DNA from: a virus
Strand: one strand, 5' to 3'
DNA length: 64,000 nucleotides
IMG/VR virus record: IMGVR_UViG_3300027836_000009
Span: 1 to 64,000 of that record
Within the stretch, counting starts at the first letter, position 1. Each line of letters starts with the position of its first letter. Of this stretch, positions 17,761-46,133 are shown piece by piece. The notes beneath the pieces are model-generated. The model did no database searches. It was given only the letters and a program-made list of their open reading frames with translations, and was not told the DNA's origin. The translations under genes and the position numbers were made by a program.

Positions 17761-18297
17761 ATGAAAATCAAAGTATTTAAAATCTTAACAGTTGCTGTCT
17801 TATTTTTAATCGTTGTAAGTTTCAACGCAATAAAAGATAAACCGTCACAAGAACATGTTACTCCGTTGCCAACAGCTTACACATTTGGTGTTACCGAAAA
17901 CGAACCACCATGTTTAAGAATGTATGAAGCAATTGAAAAGTTTGCTAAAATGTACGGCGTTCCTAAAAGATACGCATACGGAATTGCTAGTTCTGAAACA
18001 GGTTACCAAGGTCCGTTTCATTGGAAATATAAACAATGTCAAACTTCTTGTGTAGGTGCTTTAGGCCCAATGCAAATAATGCCAAGCACTGCTGATATGA
18101 TGTGGCCAAATAAGGACATCTCACGAACTCGCCTTAAAAACGATATAGAATTTAATGTCCATACTAGTATGAAGCTTCTAAGGCAACTACATGACAAGTA
18201 TAATGATTGGAAAATAGTATTTGGTTGCTACAATACTGGAAGACCATTAATTAACGATTACGCAATTGCAGTTTACAATCATCAACCACAATTTTAA
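17761..18297 (+). CDS. SLT-type lytic transglycosylase with N-terminal signal or anchor
   Basis: SETG catalytic Glu, GALGPMQIMPSTA, CYNTG; hydrophobic N-terminus. Confidence 0.88.
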   Translation: MKIKVFKILTVAVLFLIVVSFNAIKDKPSQEHVTPLPTAYTFGVTENEPPCLRMYEAIEKFAKMYGVPKRYAYGIASSETGYQGPFHWKYKQCQTSCVGALGPMQIMPSTADMMWPNKDISRTRLKNDIEFNVHTSMKLLRQLHDKYNDWKIVFGCYNTGRPLINDYAIAVYNHQPQF

Positions 18298-19547: not shown

Positions 19548-19571
19548 ACCCTGCTTCGGCAGGGTTTTTTT
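19548..19571 (+). terminator. Rho-independent terminator
   Basis: ACCCTGC-TTCG-GCAGGGT followed by a T-run; cUUCGg loop. Confidence 0.92.
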
Positions 19572-19598: not shown

Positions 19599-19787
19599 AT
19601 GAATAACGGACACTTAAAAACTTTTGAGGATTTCGCAAAAGAACTTAAGAACAAAATCCCACAAGAAGGTGATAAGAAGCCTGAGAAAAAAAGCAAAATC
19701 ATATTAGGGCCAGATCCTCAGAACTCTTCGTCACCAACAAGTCAGGAAACTAATGTAGGAGCAAAATATCCTAATGGCGGATTATGA
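19599..19787 (+). CDS. Putative internal head protein (CTS-like N-terminus)
   Basis: MNNGHLKTFEDFAKE; likely start ATG 19599. Confidence 0.6.
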   Translation: MNNGHLKTFEDFAKELKNKIPQEGDKKPEKKSKIILGPDPQNSSSPTSQETNVGAKYPNGGL

Positions 19788-19966
19788 AAAAAACATTAAA
19801 AACATACGAAGAATTTATTGGTGATAAGTCAATGGATAAAGTTATTAAACATAGCAAGACAGTTAAAGTTGTGTCAACTAATACAAACAATCCTGGAAAA
19901 GAATATGACGATGAAGAAGATGGTGGAGACACACTTAATCAAAGTCCTTTAAATGGAAACAGATAA
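19784..19966 (+). CDS. Putative internal head protein (CTS-like)
   Basis: MKKTLKTYEEFI. Confidence 0.6.
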   Translation: MKKTLKTYEEFIGDKSMDKVIKHSKTVKVVSTNTNNPGKEYDDEEDGGDTLNQSPLNGNR

Positions 19967-20081: not shown

Positions 20082-21236
20082 ATGTCATTACTAAATTACC
20101 AAGATTTCTTATTTGAAACATACGGCAAAATAAAATTGAGTGAAGCTCGTGAAAACTTGTTGAGAACAATATCAAAGTCGTATCTTTTAGAAGAAGAACA
20201 GTATGTTTTAGATTTTGTTATTCAAGAAGGCTTAACCAACGATTTCTTTTCGTTATATGAATCAAACGATGATATTATTCAAGAAAATTTTATTCAAAAA
20301 GCTAAAGAAAGATACGATAGAGCTAAAGAAGAAATAAAATCTCGCGGTAAAGAAGCACTCGATAAAATGAGTGATGCTACTAAAAATCTGGTTCAAGTTG
20401 GTGGAAACATATTAAAGCCAATTAAAACAATAATGCAAAAAATTGGTGAAGCAATTAAAAAGGCTTGGGAAGAAGCAAAAGCAATTGCGAATGAAGCAGT
20501 AAACAAGTATAAAGATAAGATATCCGAGAAAATCAAAAACTTAATTAAAGATAGCGATAAAAAGAAAAAGCTTAAAGACGAATTAAAAAATTTAGGCGAG
20601 ATGATTAGCGCAGGCACAAAGTACATCACAAGCGGTTTTTCTACTGACGCTGAAAAAGCTGCAGCTGCTGCTGCCTCATCTGATGATAAAAATGAATCTT
20701 TTTTAAACTACATTGAGTATGCAATATTAAACGAAATAACATCGGAAATTAATAAAGGCGTAAACATTGATGATATAATTGAATCCCTTAATGAAGAAGG
20801 ACACGGTCACGAGAAAAAAGGAGGGTTAAACATTCCCTTTGTAAGTAAAGTGATGAGCAAAATAGGTCATATGCCTCCGTTTAAATACTTTCACGATTTA
20901 GGCGCAAAAGCTGAAGATTTTACAAATAACAAATTATCACGAGCAAGTTTCTTAGTAAATAAAGTTGCTGATGGGCCTGCTCCTTATGAATATGTTGTTT
21001 TTGGATCTCTCGTTGGTGTTGCTGTTGGTTATTACACTGAAACATTTGCTAAAACTGGTGCTTTAGGCATACTTGCTGAATTTGGTATTCCAGGACTAGT
21101 CATTTTAAAAAGTTTAATTGGTGGAATAGGTCTTGCTTTAGCAATTTACGGAATTGCTGAATCCTTAGTTGGTAGCGAAGGCGAAGAGAAAAAGGAAGAA
21201 GAGAAGGAAGAAGACGAAAAAAAAGAAGAAGAATAA
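20082..21236 (+). CDS. Putative internal head protein, helical, with C-terminal hydrophobic segments and acidic tail
   Basis: MSLLNYQDFLFE; many internal (L/I)xE sites; Gly-rich hydrophobic helices. Confidence 0.65.
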   Translation: MSLLNYQDFLFETYGKIKLSEARENLLRTISKSYLLEEEQYVLDFVIQEGLTNDFFSLYESNDDIIQENFIQKAKERYDRAKEEIKSRGKEALDKMSDATKNLVQVGGNILKPIKTIMQKIGEAIKKAWEEAKAIANEAVNKYKDKISEKIKNLIKDSDKKKKLKDELKNLGEMISAGTKYITSGFSTDAEKAAAAAASSDDKNESFLNYIEYAILNEITSEINKGVNIDDIIESLNEEGHGHEKKGGLNIPFVSKVMSKIGHMPPFKYFHDLGAKAEDFTNNKLSRASFLVNKVADGPAPYEYVVFGSLVGVAVGYYTETFAKTGALGILAEFGIPGLVILKSLIGGIGLALAIYGIAESLVGSEGEEKKEEEKEEDEKKEEE

Positions 21237-22306
21237 TGACATTAAAACTTTACGAACAGTGGTTACTGACTGAAGGTGGCTGGGCTACAACAAAAACACA
21301 AGGGACAGTTATCAAGCCTCTTATTATTGCTGACTGCGTTAAAAAGACACGAGTTATTGCTGAAGAGTTTGCAGCTCACTGTAAAACTGTTGAACTGCCG
21401 CCTCTTGAATTTACAAAGCCAATCGGCAGCGGTACATGGTATGAAGAAGATATCGTATCACAGCCTGACAAAGTTTACGGAGACGTAGACTTTATGGTGT
21501 CTTATCCTGTTTTGGAATTAACAGGGAAAGATCGTCGTGCTGATGAAATCGCAACGGTTAAACTTTACAATAAAGAACTGATTGACTTCTTAAAGAATAA
21601 AAGATATTCGTTTATTGATATTGCTGAAACAATGACAGTTTCAAATGATGTATCATTAAAGTTTATTATGGAAGTTGAAACACCTGAAGGTGAAGGATGG
21701 ATTCAAGTAGACATTGTTGTTACGCATACTGATTATAAAGAATGGGCAATCTTTAGAATGACTCCTATTCGTAATGTAAAAGGATTTGTACTTGGTAACT
21801 TATATTCTTCTTTTGGAGAAGTTCTTGAAGTAAGTATTCAGCCTCGTGGAGTTAGAGCAAAATTTGCTGGTACTCAAATGGTTGCATATAGTAAAAGAGC
21901 TGGTACTGAGGAAAAACTTCTTACAGCAAACATTCAAACATTTATGCATGATATTGCTCGATTCTTTTGGGAAACAAGTGGCACTGATAAACCTTATGAA
22001 GAATCGTCTTCATTAAAAAGATGGAAAGGTATCAATCCACAGAACCCACGTTTTGAAGATCTTTGTGATGGGATTCGTGGAGTTGCTGAAACACTTGAGC
22101 AACTTGGTGAATTTGGCAGTGTTATCAAATATAAATCAGCAAAAGAATTATTAGATGCAGTAAAGAAGAGATATATAGAAAAGATGGAAACTGCAGGTAA
22201 CGCAGAGAAATTAAACAAAGCTGAAACGCCATCGGCAATTGCAGCTGCTGAAAAATTACGTAAGTTTGTTAAGGATTACACCGAATTAGCAGACAAGCTA
22301 TTATAA
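21236..22306 (+). CDS. Pol-beta-superfamily nucleotidyltransferase-like protein with CTS-like N-terminus
   Basis: MTLKLYEQWLLTEG; IGSG...GDVDF...IQVD triad. Confidence 0.65.
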   Translation: MTLKLYEQWLLTEGGWATTKTQGTVIKPLIIADCVKKTRVIAEEFAAHCKTVELPPLEFTKPIGSGTWYEEDIVSQPDKVYGDVDFMVSYPVLELTGKDRRADEIATVKLYNKELIDFLKNKRYSFIDIAETMTVSNDVSLKFIMEVETPEGEGWIQVDIVVTHTDYKEWAIFRMTPIRNVKGFVLGNLYSSFGEVLEVSIQPRGVRAKFAGTQMVAYSKRAGTEEKLLTANIQTFMHDIARFFWETSGTDKPYEESSSLKRWKGINPQNPRFEDLCDGIRGVAETLEQLGEFGSVIKYKSAKELLDAVKKRYIEKMETAGNAEKLNKAETPSAIAAAEKLRKFVKDYTELADKLL

Positions 22307-22309
22307 GGT

Positions 22310-22930
22310 ATGGAGTCAAACATATTAGTTGCTATAGTCACAGGGATATCATCAATCACAGTTGCGGTCATTACGGTCGTTGTTAAGGATTGGCTTGATA
22401 AAAGGAAAGTTGCTGAAAAAACAGCAAAAGATGAATGTGTTAAACATGAAGATTTGGACAACATGATGTATGTTCAAGAATTCATTGAAGCATTACGATT
22501 AGAATATAATTTTGACAGAGCTGGCATTTGTCAATTTCACAACGGAGGAAAGTTCTTTAAAGGACATTCAATGAAAAAATTTTCAATGAGTTTTGAGACA
22601 ACCAAACCAGGTATTGAAAAGATTAAACGTGGTATGCAAAATATCATGGTTTCAGAATTTCCTCATCTTATAAATGGTTTATTAAATGAAAATAGTTTAA
22701 CCATATATCAAGATACACAAGGCTTCCCAGCAACAACACGTGAAATGATATCTAACGGCATTGTTCAATCTATAAATATTCCTATCCGTGGTTTAAGCGG
22801 AGATCTTGCAGGATTTGTATTCTTGCACAATATTGGGGATCCTGGGGATCCAAGTGAAATGGTTAGTGAAGACGCAATTGATGATCTTTGCCGCCGAACA
22901 GATCAGATCTCAGGATACATTTTAAAATAA
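22310..22930 (+). CDS. Membrane-anchored GAF-domain protein, T4 holin T-like
   Basis: N-terminal TM; DRAGICQFHNG; PIRGLSGDLAGFVFL. Confidence 0.55.
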   Translation: MESNILVAIVTGISSITVAVITVVVKDWLDKRKVAEKTAKDECVKHEDLDNMMYVQEFIEALRLEYNFDRAGICQFHNGGKFFKGHSMKKFSMSFETTKPGIEKIKRGMQNIMVSEFPHLINGLLNENSLTIYQDTQGFPATTREMISNGIVQSINIPIRGLSGDLAGFVFLHNIGDPGDPSEMVSEDAIDDLCRRTDQISGYILK

Positions 22931-22941
22931 ACAAAATCATA

Positions 22942-23229
22942 ATGAAAAACTTATTAACAGGCTTAAAATGGTTAAAGACTGAAATACTTAATATGTATTC
23001 TTCAAGACCCACTTTTTTTTCAAAAAAACGTGTTGAGTCAGGAGTTGCATTTCTTATAGGACAATGGGGTATGGTGTTCTTTCTTTTAGAAAAACATACT
23101 ATTATGACAACTAGTGATTTAGCAATATGGGCTGGTATTGAATTTGCAGTATCAGGATATATGCTTAGCCAAATACAAAAAGAAAAGAAATCAGCAGTTC
23201 CGACTACAGAAGAAATAACAGAAAACTAA
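22942..23229 (+). CDS. Two-TM membrane protein
   Basis: SKKR followed by two hydrophobic segments; likely start ATG 22942. Confidence 0.65.
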   Translation: MKNLLTGLKWLKTEILNMYSSRPTFFSKKRVESGVAFLIGQWGMVFFLLEKHTIMTTSDLAIWAGIEFAVSGYMLSQIQKEKKSAVPTTEEITEN

Positions 23230-23232
23230 TAT

Positions 23233-23430
23233 ATGAAATACATTAAAACATTTGAAGCTTATTTGAATGAGCTTGAACTTCCTTTAAAAGGTGAAGACGA
23301 AAACACAAAAGGCAATAAAGACGTTGCAGCTGGTGAAGAAGAAGATGTAGTGAAAGGCGATGAAAAAGCTGACGCTAAAGGCGAAGAGGAAGAAGAGAAA
23401 GAAGAAGAAATTGATGCTGACGAAGCATAA
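23233..23430 (+). CDS. Acidic putative internal head protein (CTS-like)
   Basis: MKYIKTFEAYLNE. Confidence 0.7.
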   Translation: MKYIKTFEAYLNELELPLKGEDENTKGNKDVAAGEEEDVVKGDEKADAKGEEEEEKEEEIDADEA

Positions 23431-23444
23431 AATTATTTTATACA

Positions 23445-23819
23445 ATGAAAAACTTACAAACATACCAAGAATTCTTAAATGAACAAGAAGAAATTCTAAA
23501 CGAAGACATCAATTTGATAACAACAGTTATGTTGCTAGGTCAGGCTACGATTGTTGCAGCTGCAGTAATGGCAAGAGCGGGATATGATACACCCGATGAA
23601 AAATTAGCAGAGTGGTGGAATAAATGGAAAAGAGATCGTAGAGTTAATAAGATTTTAGATAAACTTAATGCTGATTCAGAAGTTCAACAATTTCTTACAT
23701 TGCCTCCTAAAGAACAAGAAGGTAAATGGAAAAAACTTGTAGATACAAAACTTAATAAAGAGGATAAAGATCTTCTTAATTCAATTTCTAGAGACCGAGT
23801 TAAAAAAGGTAAAATATAA
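23445..23819 (+). CDS. Putative internal head protein (CTS-like)
   Basis: MKNLQTYQEFLNE...ILNE. Confidence 0.7.
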   Translation: MKNLQTYQEFLNEQEEILNEDINLITTVMLLGQATIVAAAVMARAGYDTPDEKLAEWWNKWKRDRRVNKILDKLNADSEVQQFLTLPPKEQEGKWKKLVDTKLNKEDKDLLNSISRDRVKKGKI

Positions 23820-24280
23820 TGAAACACATAAAAACATTTGAGTCATACGTTAAAGAAGGCGTTGAGAAAAACAGCAAAGTTCTTGAATCCGAAGAATCTG
23901 TAAATGAATCAACAGATATAGATGTATCTGCATTAAGCGATGGTATGCTAAAAGAATTACGTAAGGTATTTAACGGTGTAAAGCATGGACTGTCTAATAA
24001 CGATTTACAGTTATTAGCAAAGATTACGATGGAGATCAAGAAAAGAGGTATTAAAGAATCTGTAGATGAATCTGTTATTAATGAAGGTATCATGTCATTA
24101 ACCGCATACTATAAGGATTATGATAGAGATGTAACTACTCCTGCTAAGAAAATTGATGATATACTTAATAAAGAAATTAAATCAGTTAGTAGCAAAAATG
24201 CTGTATTAGATTTGATTACTGATTTGGTTGAAGAATATGCAGTTGAATATGCAGACAACCGAGATCAAGAAAGATATTAA
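23819..24280 (+). CDS. Putative internal head protein (CTS-like) with repeated xNE/xES sites
   Basis: MKHIKTFESYVKE; SVNES; IKESVDESVINE. Confidence 0.7.
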   Translation: MKHIKTFESYVKEGVEKNSKVLESEESVNESTDIDVSALSDGMLKELRKVFNGVKHGLSNNDLQLLAKITMEIKKRGIKESVDESVINEGIMSLTAYYKDYDRDVTTPAKKIDDILNKEIKSVSSKNAVLDLITDLVEEYAVEYADNRDQERY

Positions 24281-24293
24281 AAATAAAATAAAA

Positions 24294-24599
24294 ATGAAAA
24301 ATATACACACATTTGAAGAGTTCTTAAATGAAGGAAAAGTTTCTTTTTCTAAAATGGAATTCACAGTAGCTTCGTTTGTAGATAACAAAGGACTTGCTAT
24401 TCAGTTTCTAGCAAATAATAAAACTTTAGACAATTTTAGTGCTAATGCAATGGTAAATGCAATAACTGCAATGATAAACAAAAACATATCTGACTTAAAT
24501 GGACTTTTATATTATGAAATTGGTAATGTAGCTGCAGGTATAGTATTTAGATTAGATCAATATGAATTTGGTAAAATGATAGAAAAACGACTTAAATAA
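24294..24599 (+). CDS. Putative internal head protein (CTS-like)
   Basis: Likely start ATG 24294: MKNIHTFEEFLNE. Confidence 0.7.
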   Translation: MKNIHTFEEFLNEGKVSFSKMEFTVASFVDNKGLAIQFLANNKTLDNFSANAMVNAITAMINKNISDLNGLLYYEIGNVAAGIVFRLDQYEFGKMIEKRLK

Positions 24600-24600
24600 T

Positions 24601-25146
24601 ATGAAATACGTACATACATTTGAAAGTTTCTTAAATGAAAAATTTGCTGATAAATATCCTAAGCAAATGTATATTGAACTACAGCCTAATGACATTTCTG
24701 ATTATGCTGATGAATTAGCAAATCTTGTAAATGTAGCATATGCTGATAAAGGCGGTAATCTTGAAATTAAGAACGGCGCAGATTTAAGAAAGTCTGACAT
24801 TACTTATTGGGTAGCAAAAGATATTGATGAAGATCCTAATGCAGATGTTGCAGTTGGAGGTAAGAAAACACCACATGGTGTTAAGATGACAGTTATGGGC
24901 CAAGATGGTTCTCGTGAAGCAAAAAAGGACGCAATCTTAAAAATGATTGAACTTATGAAGACTCGTGGTTTTTATGCTGAACTTGATACTGACTTAGCAC
25001 AAAAGTTAAATCTTACTCACGTTAAAGACGAAAAGAAAATACGTGATGTATTAAACAAAGACATTACTTATTTTAAAGACGGATCTTATGATCGTGATAT
25101 TGCTGGAGATACACATAGAAAAGTTCTTGTAGGAATGCCAAAATAA
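24601..25146 (+). CDS. Putative internal head protein (CTS-like), globular domain of unknown function
   Basis: MKYVHTFESFLNE. Confidence 0.7.
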   Translation: MKYVHTFESFLNEKFADKYPKQMYIELQPNDISDYADELANLVNVAYADKGGNLEIKNGADLRKSDITYWVAKDIDEDPNADVAVGGKKTPHGVKMTVMGQDGSREAKKDAILKMIELMKTRGFYAELDTDLAQKLNLTHVKDEKKIRDVLNKDITYFKDGSYDRDIAGDTHRKVLVGMPK

Positions 25147-25154
25147 TTCTAATC

Positions 25155-25859
25155 ATGAAATACATTAATAATTTTTCGGGTTGGGTTAACGAAAGTGTAT
25201 CAAGCAATGAAGCTGATAAAATCGTTTATGGAAATCAGCCAAAAGATTTACAAAAGTTAGCAGACGATAAAAACGATCCTATAAAAAATTGGTTTATAGA
25301 AAAAGGATTCGTTGATACGATTGTAAAAGAAACACCACTTAATAGCGGATCTCAAACAAGAAAAGATCTTGATACTATAGTTGAGAAAATGTCAAAAGCT
25401 ACGCCTGAAGATTTAGCGTTTGCTCGTTACATAGATGATGAAGCAAATATATCAAAAACTTTTATTGATTTATTAGGTAAATACGGACATAAAGTTTTTG
25501 AAGAAGAACATTTGTTTGTTGAAACTCAATCCGACGCAATCTTATTTTATTTAAAAGACGTAATTAATAGACCAAGACCGTATCAACTTGCTTATTATTA
25601 TAAAATTGATTTATACCCACTTATCAGAACTAACGCAATGACAGCTTCTTATCCAAGTGGACATGCTTTAGCAGGTATTATGATGAGTGAACATTACGCA
25701 AAACTTTATCCTGATGCTTCAGTTGAATTAAAAGAATTAGGAAACAAAATTGCTAACAGTAGAGAACTAACAGGAATTCATTATTCTTCTGATACAGAAA
25801 TATCTCGTAAGATATCAAAAATCATTATTGATAATAACTTGCTACAAATAAAAAAATGA
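25155..25859 (+). CDS. PAP2-superfamily phosphatase with CTS-like N-terminus
   Basis: KxxxxRPRP, SYPSGH, SRxxxGIHYxSD; MKYINNFSGWVNE. Confidence 0.88.
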   Translation: MKYINNFSGWVNESVSSNEADKIVYGNQPKDLQKLADDKNDPIKNWFIEKGFVDTIVKETPLNSGSQTRKDLDTIVEKMSKATPEDLAFARYIDDEANISKTFIDLLGKYGHKVFEEEHLFVETQSDAILFYLKDVINRPRPYQLAYYYKIDLYPLIRTNAMTASYPSGHALAGIMMSEHYAKLYPDASVELKELGNKIANSRELTGIHYSSDTEISRKISKIIIDNNLLQIKK

Positions 25860-26350: not shown

Positions 26351-26374
26351 AGAGGGACTTTGTCCCTCTTTTTT
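26351..26374 (+). terminator. Rho-independent terminator
   Basis: AGAGGGAC-TTT-GTCCCTCT followed by a T-run. Confidence 0.88.
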
Positions 26375-27387: not shown

Positions 27388-29178
27388 ATGAGTCTTTTAA
27401 ACTACCAAAAATTTATATTAAATGAAGTTAGTATATTTAAAGATAAGTATAAAAAAGGAGGAGGTAAAAGTTTTACATTAAACACAACGTCTTCAAATTC
27501 AGACGCTGTAGAATTTGCGAATTTAATTATTGCTCAAGGAGCTGACGGAAATGGTGAATATCAAAGAGTTGATTATGATGAAAACGCGCCTACTATTAAT
27601 TGGAAAGGGGGAACAACGCATTCTATAACTATAGAAGATAAAAACGGTAAACGATTTAATCTATCATCTAATAGTAAAGATATATTGGGATATGTTTGTT
27701 TGGAATATAGCGAAAAATCTTTAGGCGGGAAACTTGATGCTGCAAAATATGAACAAGGAATTGTTTACTTTTATAATACTCAAGTTATGGGATTAGACGA
27801 AGATCAAGCTATTGCGCAAGGATCTCTTAATGATTCTGATACAGGATGGTTTACTAAACTTGAGAAAACATGTTTAGGCGTTGCTAAACAATTAGATTCT
27901 AATTTAGGACCTTTAATTTGGTCAGGAAGCGATTCTGTAAATACTAGTGCTGACTGGAAAAGCAGCGATAAAACGCCTAAGACTGACGTATATTCAGGAA
28001 AATCAAATAGCGGTAAGTTTTCTGTTAAAAAAACAGGTGGCTCACAATTAATGAGCGGGACTACTGAAGCAAAAGATGTGTTTAACGCTGCGCTTCAATA
28101 CTATAATCACTTTGAGAAAAAGAAATCTATCGTGTCTCCTGCTTTTATTGAAAATTTATCAAAAAAGGTTTCATATGTAGTTAAATCTGAAGAAGGCATT
28201 CAAAAACTTAAAGCAAATGCTCAAGAAGCATGGGTTTCTTTTAGATTAGGAACAGTATTAGATACAATACGCAAAAATAAACTTACATTGCCTATTGTTT
28301 TTCAAAAAGATCCAAATCGCCCAGCAACTGATAAAGCAATATCTGACGCAGCAGACGCTCACACAAAAGCTGAATTTGCATCAGCAGGAATTGGTGATAG
28401 ACGTGGAAATTGGGAAAGCAATTTAATTAAAGGCATTGATGACGGCCAGAAAATTTTTAATGGCTGGTGGGAAAAATCTTATTTGCCTACATTAGCATCT
28501 GTGCAGAAAGATGTATTATTAACAACCGTTTTAGAAGCTACTCAAGATCATCGTGAAGTACAAGAATCTTTAAGGGATGTTTTTCAAAATGATCCTGATT
28601 TTTTAAAGTGGCTTATTTATGAAGCCGCAACAGGGCAAGTAAAATTTAGCGGAAATGTCAATATTGATTCATCCACTGGTGTTACAGCAATTGCTGATAA
28701 GTTTTTGATATTTAATGATACTGGACTTGCTGAGCCTATTGCACCAATTACTATTGGATGGGCTAAGGATCATATTAAAGAAGTTAAAACAACGGTAGGG
28801 TTTAAGTCATCAGGAAGTAGGTCAGCTTCATCTATAAGATTAGCGATAGGTGGTAAATTAGACGAAAGTGAATCTCTTCAATTATCAGGCATGGAAAGAA
28901 TAATTTTTGAAGAATTTAATAAACTAAATAATGATTTATTAGCATTAAATGAATCCTTTATTGATTCTTTTAAGAAAACACTTAATAACGTAAAAACTTT
29001 TGCGGCTCAAACTTGGACTGCTGTGACAAACGCAATTTCTTATTTTTATCAAAATATAATAGTAAGAATTTCTAAAGCATTTACAGATGTATTCAGTCAA
29101 GGAATTGATGCTATATGTAGTTTTTTTGGTTTTACAATAGACGGAGCAGTTGACGGAGAAATTAACATAAGTTTTTAA
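27388..29178 (+). CDS. Putative internal head protein with a restriction-endonuclease-like domain
   Basis: MSLLNYQKFILNE; YEQG...TPKTDV...FSVKK..GSQLMSG. Confidence 0.55.
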   Translation: MSLLNYQKFILNEVSIFKDKYKKGGGKSFTLNTTSSNSDAVEFANLIIAQGADGNGEYQRVDYDENAPTINWKGGTTHSITIEDKNGKRFNLSSNSKDILGYVCLEYSEKSLGGKLDAAKYEQGIVYFYNTQVMGLDEDQAIAQGSLNDSDTGWFTKLEKTCLGVAKQLDSNLGPLIWSGSDSVNTSADWKSSDKTPKTDVYSGKSNSGKFSVKKTGGSQLMSGTTEAKDVFNAALQYYNHFEKKKSIVSPAFIENLSKKVSYVVKSEEGIQKLKANAQEAWVSFRLGTVLDTIRKNKLTLPIVFQKDPNRPATDKAISDAADAHTKAEFASAGIGDRRGNWESNLIKGIDDGQKIFNGWWEKSYLPTLASVQKDVLLTTVLEATQDHREVQESLRDVFQNDPDFLKWLIYEAATGQVKFSGNVNIDSSTGVTAIADKFLIFNDTGLAEPIAPITIGWAKDHIKEVKTTVGFKSSGSRSASSIRLAIGGKLDESESLQLSGMERIIFEEFNKLNNDLLALNESFIDSFKKTLNNVKTFAAQTWTAVTNAISYFYQNIIVRISKAFTDVFSQGIDAICSFFGFTIDGAVDGEINISF

Positions 29179-42940: not shown

Positions 42941-43309
42941 ATGAAGTACATTAAAAAATTTGAAGATTATGTTGCTTCTTATAAAGACAGCAATCTTCAA
43001 AATGATGACGAGGAACAATTCAAAAAAGCTGCAAAAGTAACAACTAACGAAAGTGGTTTTGTTATTGAATATAATGATGATAAAGTTACAATTGAAAGCG
43101 GTCTTGATGAAGGTAATGAAGAAGTTCCTGTAGATGAAATTGCTGAAGCACTAAAAAAACTTGGCGCTGAAACTGTTACTTTTGAAAATGAAGATGGTGA
43201 AACTGAATCTCATCCAGTTAATGAGTTTTTAAGAAAATTGAATCCGCTTCGTTGGAAATTATCAAAGAAACATAGGTCAATTGCTGGTGCAATAAAAGAC
43301 GACGAATAA
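42941..43309 (+). CDS. Acidic putative internal head protein (CTS-like)
   Basis: MKYIKKFEDYV. Confidence 0.6.
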   Translation: MKYIKKFEDYVASYKDSNLQNDDEEQFKKAAKVTTNESGFVIEYNDDKVTIESGLDEGNEEVPVDEIAEALKKLGAETVTFENEDGETESHPVNEFLRKLNPLRWKLSKKHRSIAGAIKDDE

Positions 43310-44435: not shown

Positions 44436-46133
44436 ATGGCATTAGAAATTTTTAAGTATAACAGGATTCGTTTTGAGCAACTTTATCAAGACTCTAAAGA
44501 TTACCTCACAAATAAATTTTTACAAGTTGGGGATGTGTTCTCTCCAGCCAGTGCATACGGTCAGCTTTTAGGTGTAATAATTGATTTAGGTAAACTTATC
44601 TTTTATTATGTTGAAGACAGTATTACTGAATTAAACATCTACACGGCAACTCGTGATTCATCAATCCGAAGTCTTGCCAGAATCGCTGGGCATAACCCAA
44701 CGCGAGCAATTGCTGCATCAGGTACAGTTATGATATCATATAACGGTAACCCAATTGATATGTATGGCAATACAGCAATCATCCCTAATTACACTAGAAT
44801 TATTAATAATGCTACAGGTTTAACATATACAATTGTTGCCGATAGTGAAGATATAAGAGTTCAACTTAGTGGTTCAACTACAATTGAAACTAAATTACTT
44901 CAAGGAATCATTGAAGCTCAAACTGTTACAGGAACAGGATTTGCATTACAATCATATAACATAAATGTAAAAAGAGGATCACAAGTTGATAACTTCTTTG
45001 TGTATGTTTATGTAAATGGGGAAAAGTGGCAAACATACGATTCTATTTATGATATGCCATATGAAAAGAAAGGCGTTGTTGTAAAAACAGGTATTAATGC
45101 AGGTATTGACCTTTACTTTGGTAACGGTTTCTTTGGATCAATTCCTGATTTAGGTGCTTCTATTAGAGTTGAGTACTTATCAACAAGTGGAAACGCTGGA
45201 AACATTCTTGAAGGCGAAACTACACAATTTACATTTGTTGATGATGTTTACGATTTAGCAGGTAACGTTATTCCTATTAATGATGCTGTTAAATTAAACA
45301 TTGGTAAACCTATCATTTTTGGATCTGATGCTGAACCTATTTACTTAACAAGAATTCTTGCGCCAAAAACAAGTAGATCATACGTATTAGCAAATGCTGA
45401 TTCTTACGTTTACTTTTTAGAAAAATTTAATATCTTTAGTGTAATTGATGCTTTTAATACATTTGATGATAATGACTTAAGTGACGATAATGTTGTTTAC
45501 TTATTTTTAATACCAGACGTAAATAAAAGAAAGCCATCAAACGCTGATTACTTTACTGTTCCTATTAAGTTATTTACGCTATCTGAAGCAGAGAAAAATA
45601 AAGTATATGATTTTATTGAACAAAGCGGGCAAAAGATAATCACAACAGTTGTTAAAATTGTTGACCCAATCATAAAGAAATACGTTCTTAATATAAACAT
45701 TACTGCATATGAAGGGTATAGTAAAGATAATGTAAGACAACAAATCATTTCTAAATGTAGCGATTATTTCTTAAAGAATCGTCGTAGAGATCGTATACCA
45801 AAATCTGATCTTATTTCAATCATTGAAAACATACAAGGTGTTGACTCAGTTAACTTGTGGTTTGTTGGTGAAGAAAATGAATACATTAAATCAGACCCAG
45901 CAAATGCTTCTTTACCTGACGTAGGAATTGATACATTTGGTGACATTGTTATTAATCGTGGTGAGTATGCACTTATAAGAGGGGGTTGGAATGATCGTAA
46001 TGGATATGTTTATTATGATACTTCATCAGCAACTAAGCCTGGAAGTATTAATATTGCATTTGGTAAAGATTCGTCAAACTCAATTAATATGGAATTACAT
46101 CGTATAAATGTAGATAGCATAAAAACATCTTAA
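44436..46133 (+). CDS. Baseplate wedge protein, gp6-like
   Basis: TATRDSSIRSLARIAGHNP, LYFGNGFFGSIP, VEYLSTSGNAGN; likely start ATG 44436. Confidence 0.85.
   Translation: MALEIFKYNRIRFEQLYQDSKDYLTNKFLQVGDVFSPASAYGQLLGVIIDLGKLIFYYVEDSITELNIYTATRDSSIRSLARIAGHNPTRAIAASGTVMISYNGNPIDMYGNTAIIPNYTRIINNATGLTYTIVADSEDIRVQLSGSTTIETKLLQGIIEAQTVTGTGFALQSYNINVKRGSQVDNFFVYVYVNGEKWQTYDSIYDMPYEKKGVVVKTGINAGIDLYFGNGFFGSIPDLGASIRVEYLSTSGNAGNILEGETTQFTFVDDVYDLAGNVIPINDAVKLNIGKPIIFGSDAEPIYLTRILAPKTSRSYVLANADSYVYFLEKFNIFSVIDAFNTFDDNDLSDDNVVYLFLIPDVNKRKPSNADYFTVPIKLFTLSEAEKNKVYDFIEQSGQKIITTVVKIVDPIIKKYVLNINITAYEGYSKDNVRQQIISKCSDYFLKNRRRDRIPKSDLISIIENIQGVDSVNLWFVGEENEYIKSDPANASLPDVGIDTFGDIVINRGEYALIRGGWNDRNGYVYYDTSSATKPGSINIAFGKDSSNSINMELHRINVDSIKTS

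Follow-up and report, generated by a model that had tools for sequence, protein, structure and literature searches.

N-terminal tags on proteins of a huge-phage fragment

The DNA analysed here (the window) is the initial 64 kb of a linear virus record of 92,113 bp, IMG/VR IMGVR_UViG_3300027836_000009, the completeness of which was estimated at ~32% by CheckV. Twelve proteins encoded in the window, and three on the rest of the contig, share a start peptide with the approximate consensus M-K-x-[IL]-x-T-[FY]-E-x-[FY]-[LIV]-N-E (the tag), and the main tagged genes span 19.6–29.2 kb of the window (Table 1). Three tagged proteins, named here by the first positions of their genes (20082, 23819 and 27388), were singled out in an initial annotation as carrying clusters of internal [LIV]xE motifs, which were read as sites where a prohead protease cuts them into several small effectors. 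All of the strings quoted in support of this idea were found in the sequence, namely KVLESEESVNES and IKESVDESVINEG in 23819; LFE12, LSE21, LLE37, IQE49, LYE60, IQE68, ILNE218 and IIESLNE238 in 20082; and LDE, IFE508 and LNE522 in 27388.

The affinity of the fragment was indicated by its gp6-like baseplate protein (44436–46133), the closest relative of which was found in the 462-kb uncultured phage LR756500 (41% identity), followed by those of Lak megaphages (36%) and of the 636–735-kb phages LR756501–4. This kinship indicates that the window is a fragment of a large or huge myophage, and on sequence grounds we place it as a huge myophage fragment that is distantly related to the Lak and LR756500 phages.

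The reading of the tags as capsid targeting sequences of the T4 type was borne out by comparison with the internal proteins of T4, the genes of which were translated here. IPIII and IPII begin with MKTYQEFIAE and IPI begins with MKTFKEFTST, and the tags in the window included MKNLQTYQEFLNE (at 23445) and MKYIKTFEAYLNE. According to the cited passages on T4, the first 10 residues of IPIII are enough for loading into the head and are later removed, with residues 4 and 7 of the tag controlling targeting and residues 8 and 10 controlling cutting by the head protease gp21 (PMC9026906). The likeness to IPI, IPII, IPIII and Alt of T4 thus lies in a short, near-identical N-terminal leader (MKTYQEFIAE and MKTFKEFTST in T4, MKNLQTYQEFLNE and MKTFKEFKYT here) that ends in [LI]xE and heads unrelated, fast-changing cargo, as well as in a gp21-family protease in related huge phages. 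In contrast to T4, the leader is 3 residues longer here and its preferred end is [LIV]-N-E, the host genome is that of a huge phage, some of the cargo has conserved internal sites and exchangeable modules, and the system is known from sequence alone. The leader MKTFKEFKYT opens a 111-aa protein encoded outside the window (contig positions 84109–84444), the first seven residues of which (MKTFKEF) are those of T4 IPI and the C-terminal Gly-rich hydrophobic stretch of which resembles the C-terminus of 20082.

An [LIV]xE motif was present within residues 1–18 in 12 of the 15 tagged proteins, the exceptions being 19599 (AKE), 19784 (IGD) and 42941 (none). A strict DNA pattern for the tag had 5 matches in the contig and 9 in LR756500 (0 for the reversed pattern), and the matched strings differed at third codon positions, which indicates that the tag is conserved at the protein level. 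On related contigs the same kind of tag heads many unrelated small proteins, as a loose pattern matched 50 of 861 open reading frames (ORFs), 3 of which were false matches and were excluded. In one subgroup (19784–19966 and its homologues on L002, L003, L004, L010–L012 and G003) the tag ends in F-I-G-D, with Asp replacing Glu. Asp at that position of the T4 tag is described as blocking cutting while loading is still possible (PMC9026906), and by analogy the proteins of this subgroup may keep their tag. A full-text literature search, judged from its listings and selected passages, found no paper linking capsid targeting sequences with megaphages.

Conservation of internal sites at module joints

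A search with 23819 returned 50 homologues, of which 30, hand-picked to cover the identity range and all unusual lengths, were aligned with the window protein (n = 31). The motif [LIVM]NE stood immediately ahead of module B in 31/31 sequences, with N88 and E89 invariant next to linker residues that vary, and G90 nearly invariant. At the earlier site, E30 was invariant and N29 was conserved in at least 90% of the sequences. Most family members consist of the tag, module A and module B, while others combine these parts differently: P0080 is tag and B, P0072 is tag, linker and B, P0071 is tag, X and B, P0037 is tag, X, A and B, P0082 and P0085 have other parts ahead of B, and in P0073/74, P0076 and P0077 (four sequences) module A is followed by three unrelated C-terminal parts, with the switch at the NE joint. 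In every arrangement [LIVM]NE precedes the next module, such that the family shows the mark of a polyprotein, i.e., independently occurring modules joined by a constant motif. An AlphaFold2 (AF2) model of 23819 (mean predicted local distance difference test score, pLDDT, 66.8) contained confident helical modules at residues 32–80 and 90–148 and low-confidence linkers at 12–31 and 81–89, which end in VNE30 and INE89, respectively, and 5 of the 9 [LIV]xE sites of the protein fell within these 29 linker residues (binomial p = 0.016). VNE30 and INE89 accordingly held up as separators of the modules, being conserved in diverged homologues and located at joints or linkers.

The exchange of modules also bears on a different account, in which recombination between separately tagged genes at their tag-coding DNA fused these genes and left the last three residues of the tag behind, such that the internal [LIV]NE joints would be scars that mark ancestry rather than present cutting. 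Modules do exist both as separate tagged genes and fused, tagged genes in the cluster lie head to tail with 0–14 nt between them, and P0075 and P0084 contain a whole tag. However, the joints retain nothing of the tag but its three cutting residues, the aromatic ones being absent, N88 and E89 have stayed invariant over 31 sequences while their neighbours vary, and the joints of the 20082 family have been retained to great divergence (see below); we therefore consider fusion scars very unlikely to be the explanation. The joints repeat the cutting half of the tag without its aromatic targeting half, which also argues against their being additional targeting signals. In P0075 and P0084 the whole tag is internal, lying behind a conserved Gly/Pro-rich segment of ~45–50 residues, and either the start codons of these two genes were miscalled or the tag can act internally.

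In the alignment of all 32 homologues found for 20082, residues E12, E68 and E238 were invariant or nearly so (E238 in 32/32), each of them following a stretch of variable length and preceding a conserved block. When 1.84 billion representatives were searched with a profile, 158 proteins scored E ≤ 0.001, which puts the family at 158 or more clusters defined at 50% identity. The best 150 listed, which are at most 50% identical to each other, were aligned to the profile, and [LIVM]xE was scored allowing a one-residue shift; many of these representatives match mainly or only the C-terminal domain and some may be fragments. Of the sequences aligned at each position, 35 of 45 had the motif at the tag end, 84 of 96 had it at residue 68 (with Asn at P2 in 44) and 94 of 117 had it at residue 238 (with Gly or Ser following the Glu in 62). 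These are the top three [LIVM]xE positions of the protein (median 5%, 95th percentile 41%), and the joints were retained down to ~20–25% identity. Members from other lineages begin with other variants of the tag, e.g., MKHRIPTLNEYVNE. Of the remaining sites quoted for 20082, LLE37, IQE49 and IIE234 were conserved in 72–88% of close homologues. LNE238 ahead of the hydrophobic domain was upheld as a conserved site, and LSE21 and LYE60 were poorly conserved.

The three pieces delimited by these residues differ in composition. Piece 13–68 is acidic (net charge −7), piece 69–238 is Lys-rich (32 K+R, 30 D+E), and piece 239–384 has a GxxxGxxxG motif at 308–316, a strongly hydrophobic stretch at 328–363 and an acidic tail. 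The Gly-rich hydrophobic C-terminal piece noticed initially is real and conserved, in the form of a glycine zipper, and its hydropathy and conserved glycines suggest that it may insert into a membrane. Profile searches of the PDB with queries A1 and A3 gave matches at chance level (best E 0.04 and 0.66), an ESM Atlas look-up with residues 239–384 gave uninformative scores (≤0.79), and a cluster look-up of 10 diverse representatives of the family gave 'hypothetical protein' only. Two other identities were considered and rejected. Matches to tail tape measure proteins in PHROG were partial (E 6e-6 to 5e-3) and confined to the Lys-rich helical part, and the gene is surrounded by tagged genes rather than placed in a tail block, its counterpart in the related contig G006 (described below) being a neighbour of the capsid gene. 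An ElaB/YqjD/DUF883 or gas-vesicle-type identity, given as a source label to some homologues, had no such Pfam match at E ≤ 0.01.

For 27388, 15 of the 17 matches were aligned, the two omitted ones covering only 8–13% of the query. In 27388, the final ~74 residues make up a distinct, conserved helical region. Among the sites proposed ahead of it, IFE508 and LNE522 were borne out, with [LIVM]xE conserved in 93% of the 15, while LDE, conserved in 60%, was not. Distant members of the family have a different N-terminal part of ~60 residues, the last of which, L-[NDHT]-E, align with the end of the tag.

The clusters could instead be a by-product of composition, with [LIV]xE arising often in helices and linkers rich in Glu, Leu and Ile and its conserved occurrences serving an ordinary structural role. 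Motif counts covered the entire 92-kb contig, with 15 tagged and 68 untagged proteins. Beyond residue 15, the tagged proteins contained 66 [LIV]xE motifs vs. 50.8 expected from 1000 shuffles per protein (1.30x), and untagged proteins contained 391 vs. 338.6 (1.16x). By protein, 23819 had 8 vs. 3.9 (p = 0.014, uncorrected for 15 proteins), 20082 had 14 vs. 9.9 (p = 0.09) and 27388 had 9 vs. 6.0 (p = 0.11), such that only 1 of the 15 reached p < 0.05. The enrichment over a Glu-rich background anticipated for tagged proteins in general was hence weak, and so is the general claim when judged by the refutation test set in the initial annotation. For [LIVM]NE, the motif that ends most tags and one chosen post hoc with the sites already seen, the tagged proteins had 10 vs. 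3.1 expected (3.25x; Poisson P = 0.0013) and the untagged proteins 37 vs. 24.8 (1.49x), with expectations calculated analytically and a difference in rate between the two groups of Fisher p = 0.011. On related contigs the tagged proteins had 18 vs. 5.0 expected, with 14 of the 18 sites in 20082-family proteins, and there was no excess in 31 small tagged proteins (4 internal sites vs. 2.6 expected) or in 130 untagged homologues (52 vs. 46.9). Since enrichment on related contigs was carried by the 20082 family, the internal sites belong to a few families and not to tagged proteins generally.

What clearly exceeds chance is the conservation of specific sites at module joints. The three tagged families together contained 25 columns in which 80% or more of sequences had Glu, and a conserved [LIVM] was found at offset −2 in 12 of these 25, relative to 27 of 275 at the other eleven offsets between −6 and +6 taken together (Fisher 7e-6). 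The control comprised the 18 untagged proteins for which 14 related contigs and loci supplied five or more distinct sequences; in these families of the same phages, offset −2 scored 49/233 and all offsets were flat at 18–24%, a baseline that is raised by the smaller control alignments (5–8 sequences vs. 15–32 in the tagged families). The preference for −2 stands out only in the tagged families, given the flat control. Although the raw counts and the small tagged proteins of related contigs fit a by-product of composition, the offset preference, the coincidence of the three best positions of the 20082 family with the tag end and two domain joints, and an NE joint that is invariant despite the exchange of modules do not, and this explanation appears quite unlikely.

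Head protease of relatives and genes around the tagged cluster

The initial annotation attributed cutting to a prohead protease. A gp21-type protease was indeed present in relatives, as matches to Peptidase_S77 (the gp21 family) above the Pfam cut-off were obtained in LR756500 (44.8 bits), Lak-C1 (57.6) and G006 (45.5; T4 control, 372), while none was found on the 92-kb fragment itself. G006 is a 425-kb contig reached by a scan of genome contigs with P0128, a representative of the 20082 family. One strand of it encodes, in order, a 683-aa protease–scaffold fusion, a 569-aa capsid protein that starts with MKLLNE, a 287-aa ORF and a run of tagged genes, the products of which start with MKQRIPTLDEFINE or close variants and include a 20082-family member encoded ~3 kb from the capsid gene. 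Five [LIVM]NE occur within the first 90 residues of this member, and the protease–scaffold protein has 6 vs. 1.47 expected. In LR756500 the capsid protein begins with MIKLINE and follows a 632-aa protease–scaffold fusion. The same three residues therefore end the capsid leader and the cargo tags in both LR756500 and G006, and are frequent in the G006 scaffold too, as expected from a T4-like maturation protease that prefers [LIV]-N-E.

In both genomes (L027 in LR756500; L050, 12541–14592, in G006) the gp21-like protease domain is fused to a helical, repeat-rich, scaffold-like C-terminal part; in T4, protease and scaffold are separate genes. The G006 contig, C1 (425,361 bp), has a head module and many tagged genes and is nevertheless assigned to an archaeal metagenome-assembled genome; very probably, a huge-phage contig has here been placed in the wrong bin. 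Scans of viral contigs for a larger, closer relative with the protease yielded a single short locus with query A1, another with A2, and nothing with P0016 or P0030.

The window has a G+C content of ~32% and nearly all of its genes are on the + strand; it contained no tRNA genes, and its other genes include ones for DNA modification, nucleotide metabolism and the baseplate. G+C-rich hairpins followed by T runs, at 19548–19565 and 26351–26369, flank the main cluster of tagged genes. Gene leaders are A+T-rich, with no obvious Shine-Dalgarno motif among 19 upstream regions, and the T4 late promoter TATAAATA was not enriched (5 matches vs. 11 expected). Just upstream of the cluster, an SLT-domain transglycosylase with a hydrophobic N-terminus is encoded at 17761–18297 (42.5 bits), a placement that is kept on L006, L010, L011 and G003. 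The tagged protein encoded directly after 20082 contains a G-S...D-V-D pattern reminiscent of nucleotidyltransferase active sites, had no Pfam or informative PHROG match, and has homologues that directly follow the 20082 homologue on L002 and L008. The product of 25155–25859 may be a packaged enzyme.

Table 1. Tagged genes of the window and candidate cut sites in their products.
Feature	Position	Strand	Remarks
Small tagged protein (MNNGHLKTFEDFAKE...)	19599..19787	+	Tag ends A-K-E, not [LIV]xE
Small tagged protein, 'EEFIGD' subgroup	19784..19966	+	Asp where other tags have Glu
20082, 384-aa tagged protein	20082..21236	+	Tag 1-12; acidic spacer 13-68; Lys-rich helical part 69-238; hydrophobic Gly-zipper domain 239-365; acidic tail 366-384
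L10-F-E12 of 20082, candidate cut site	20109..20117	+	Tag end
I66-Q-E68 of 20082, candidate cut site	20277..20285	+	Would end the N-terminal propeptide
L236-N-E238 of 20082, candidate cut site	20787..20795	+	Directly before hydrophobic C-terminal domain
356-aa tagged protein (MTLKLYEQWLLTE...)	21236..22306	+	No internal [LIVM]NE; [LIV]xE 7 vs. 7.1 expected
65-aa tagged protein, very acidic	23233..23430	+	Tag MKYIKTFEAYLNE
124-aa tagged protein	23445..23819	+	Tag end LNE13; second LNE at 18-20, then one hydrophobic segment 24-42
23819, 153-aa tagged two-module protein	23819..24280	+	Tag 1-13; linker 14-30; module A 31-89; module B 90-153
V28-N-E30 of 23819, candidate cut site	23900..23908	+	Ends low-confidence linker (12-31)
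I87-N-E89 of 23819, candidate cut site	24077..24085	+	A/B module joint
101-aa tagged protein (MKNIHTFEEFLNE)	24294..24599	+	Tag site only
181-aa tagged protein (MKYVHTFESFLNE)	24601..25146	+	Tag site only
234-aa tagged protein	25155..25859	+	Weak PAP2-phosphatase match (25.9 bits; Pfam cut-off 27.2)
27388, 596-aa tagged protein	27388..29178	+	Tag (MSLLNYQKFILNE) close to that of 20082
I506-F-E508 of 27388, candidate cut site	28903..28911	+	
L520-N-E522 of 27388, candidate cut site	28945..28953	+	After variable-length linker, before last domain
122-aa protein with tag-like start (MKYIKKFEDYVASY)	42941..43309	+	No [LIV]xE in residues 1-18; in baseplate/neck gene block

Proposed processing of the tagged proteins

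Overall, we consider it probable that the proteins of the 20082, 23819 and 27388 families are cargo of the head that is cut by the head protease at internal joints within the capsid. This reading builds on the observed motifs and their conservation, on modules that are exchanged at the joints, and on relatives that encode the protease and carry the leader motif on their capsid proteins; from these we infer packaging, cleavage, the fate of the pieces and a role after injection. The tag would bind the assembling head core, such that the protein becomes enclosed in the prohead, and a head protease of the T4 gp21 type would then cut after the Glu of [LIV]-x-E (mostly [LIV]-N-E here), removing the tag. 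The same protease would cut the internal joints of the three proteins. In 20082, the 68-residue acidic N-terminal propeptide would be degraded at several sites and the Lys-rich helical part (69–238) would be split from the hydrophobic glycine-zipper part (239–384); in 23819, the two small helical modules would be separated; and in 27388, the last ~74 residues would be freed or removed.

Comparison with the giant phages phiKZ, 201phi2-1 and SPN3US qualifies this reading. Nearly all of the cuts mapped there, in the material consulted, remove N-terminal propeptides, and a small residue (S/A/G) occupies P3 at those sites, both of which differ from what we propose here; nor does that material describe a T4-like tag common to many small proteins or an exchange of modules at cut sites. 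The likeness lies in a gp21-related protease that, in the sections cited, cuts after Glu in a three-residue motif and acts on long propeptides with several redundant sites, to which the N-terminal 68 residues of 20082 look similar (PMC9026906, PMC10052503). For SPN3US, propeptides are described as being removed through multiple cleavages (PMC10052503). The cluster of sites in the N-terminal part of 20082, initially taken as a source of effectors, fits such a propeptide better: by this analogy, residues 1–68 look like a multi-site propeptide that is degraded and lost rather than a set of effectors. That the three proteins yield 'several small effectors' is unproven.

The same comparison suggests that only N-terminal propeptides might be removed (the tag and, in 20082, the acidic spacer to E68, degraded at several redundant sites), with the downstream joints left uncut and one mature product per protein. 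Module A of 23819 would then be a long conserved propeptide or a core-binding adaptor, and E238 of 20082 and E508/E522 of 27388 would be kept for structure. In the cited part of the SPN3US work, the removal of N-terminal propeptides accounts for 13 of the 14 cleavages mapped, with repeated cuts in long propeptides (PMC10052503), which agrees with the run of five [LIVM]NE at the start of the G006 member of the 20082 family, and module A stands ahead of several unrelated C-terminal modules in the manner of an adaptor. On the other hand, among the 150 diverged representatives E238 with [LIVM] at −2 is conserved like the tag site and follows a linker of variable length, module B can occur directly behind the tag without module A (P0080, P0072), and T4 Alt is described as being cut near its C-terminus as well (PMC9026906). 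We regard a restriction of cutting to N-terminal propeptides as rather doubtful.

Several results weigh against cutting at the internal joints. Neither Peptidase_S77 nor Gp23 had a match on the 92-kb fragment (~32% complete), nor was a scaffold gene found there, and five closer contigs (26–84 kb) had no protease family (all five) and no capsid family (the three searched), so that a protease is linked to these proteins through relatives that are further removed. To our knowledge, T4 gp21 does not cut every LxE. Profile searches of LR756500 and Lak-C1, as well as of T4, gave no match to the 20082 family, and tblastn searches with 20082 and P0128 against 50,697 phage records gave no match among cultured relatives. 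The AF2 model of 20082 (32 sequences) was poor (mean pLDDT 44.7), such that its domain limits are given by conservation and hydropathy only. To these points are added the weak general excess of [LIV]xE, the post hoc choice of [LIVM]NE and its lack of excess in the small tagged proteins of related contigs, and the higher baseline of the offset control.

A broader possibility, which we put forward tentatively, is that the packaged proteome of this lineage is written in a T4-like address tag and [LIV]-N-E joints, with modules freely shuffled and cut apart in the capsid, and that the 20082 family is a core component of it, the glycine-zipper piece of which would be freed at E238 and become inserted in the host membrane as the DNA is ejected. 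If such a grammar were true, the injected cargo of uncultured huge phages would be readable from sequence alone.

Huge phages are known almost only from metagenomes. With its many clusters and its place beside the capsid gene in G006, the 20082 family offers a concrete candidate for an internal or ejection protein that is conserved among such phages. If cutting at tags and internal joints holds, the set of packaged and probably injected proteins, together with their mature pieces, would become predictable, giving exact peptides to seek in metaproteomes.

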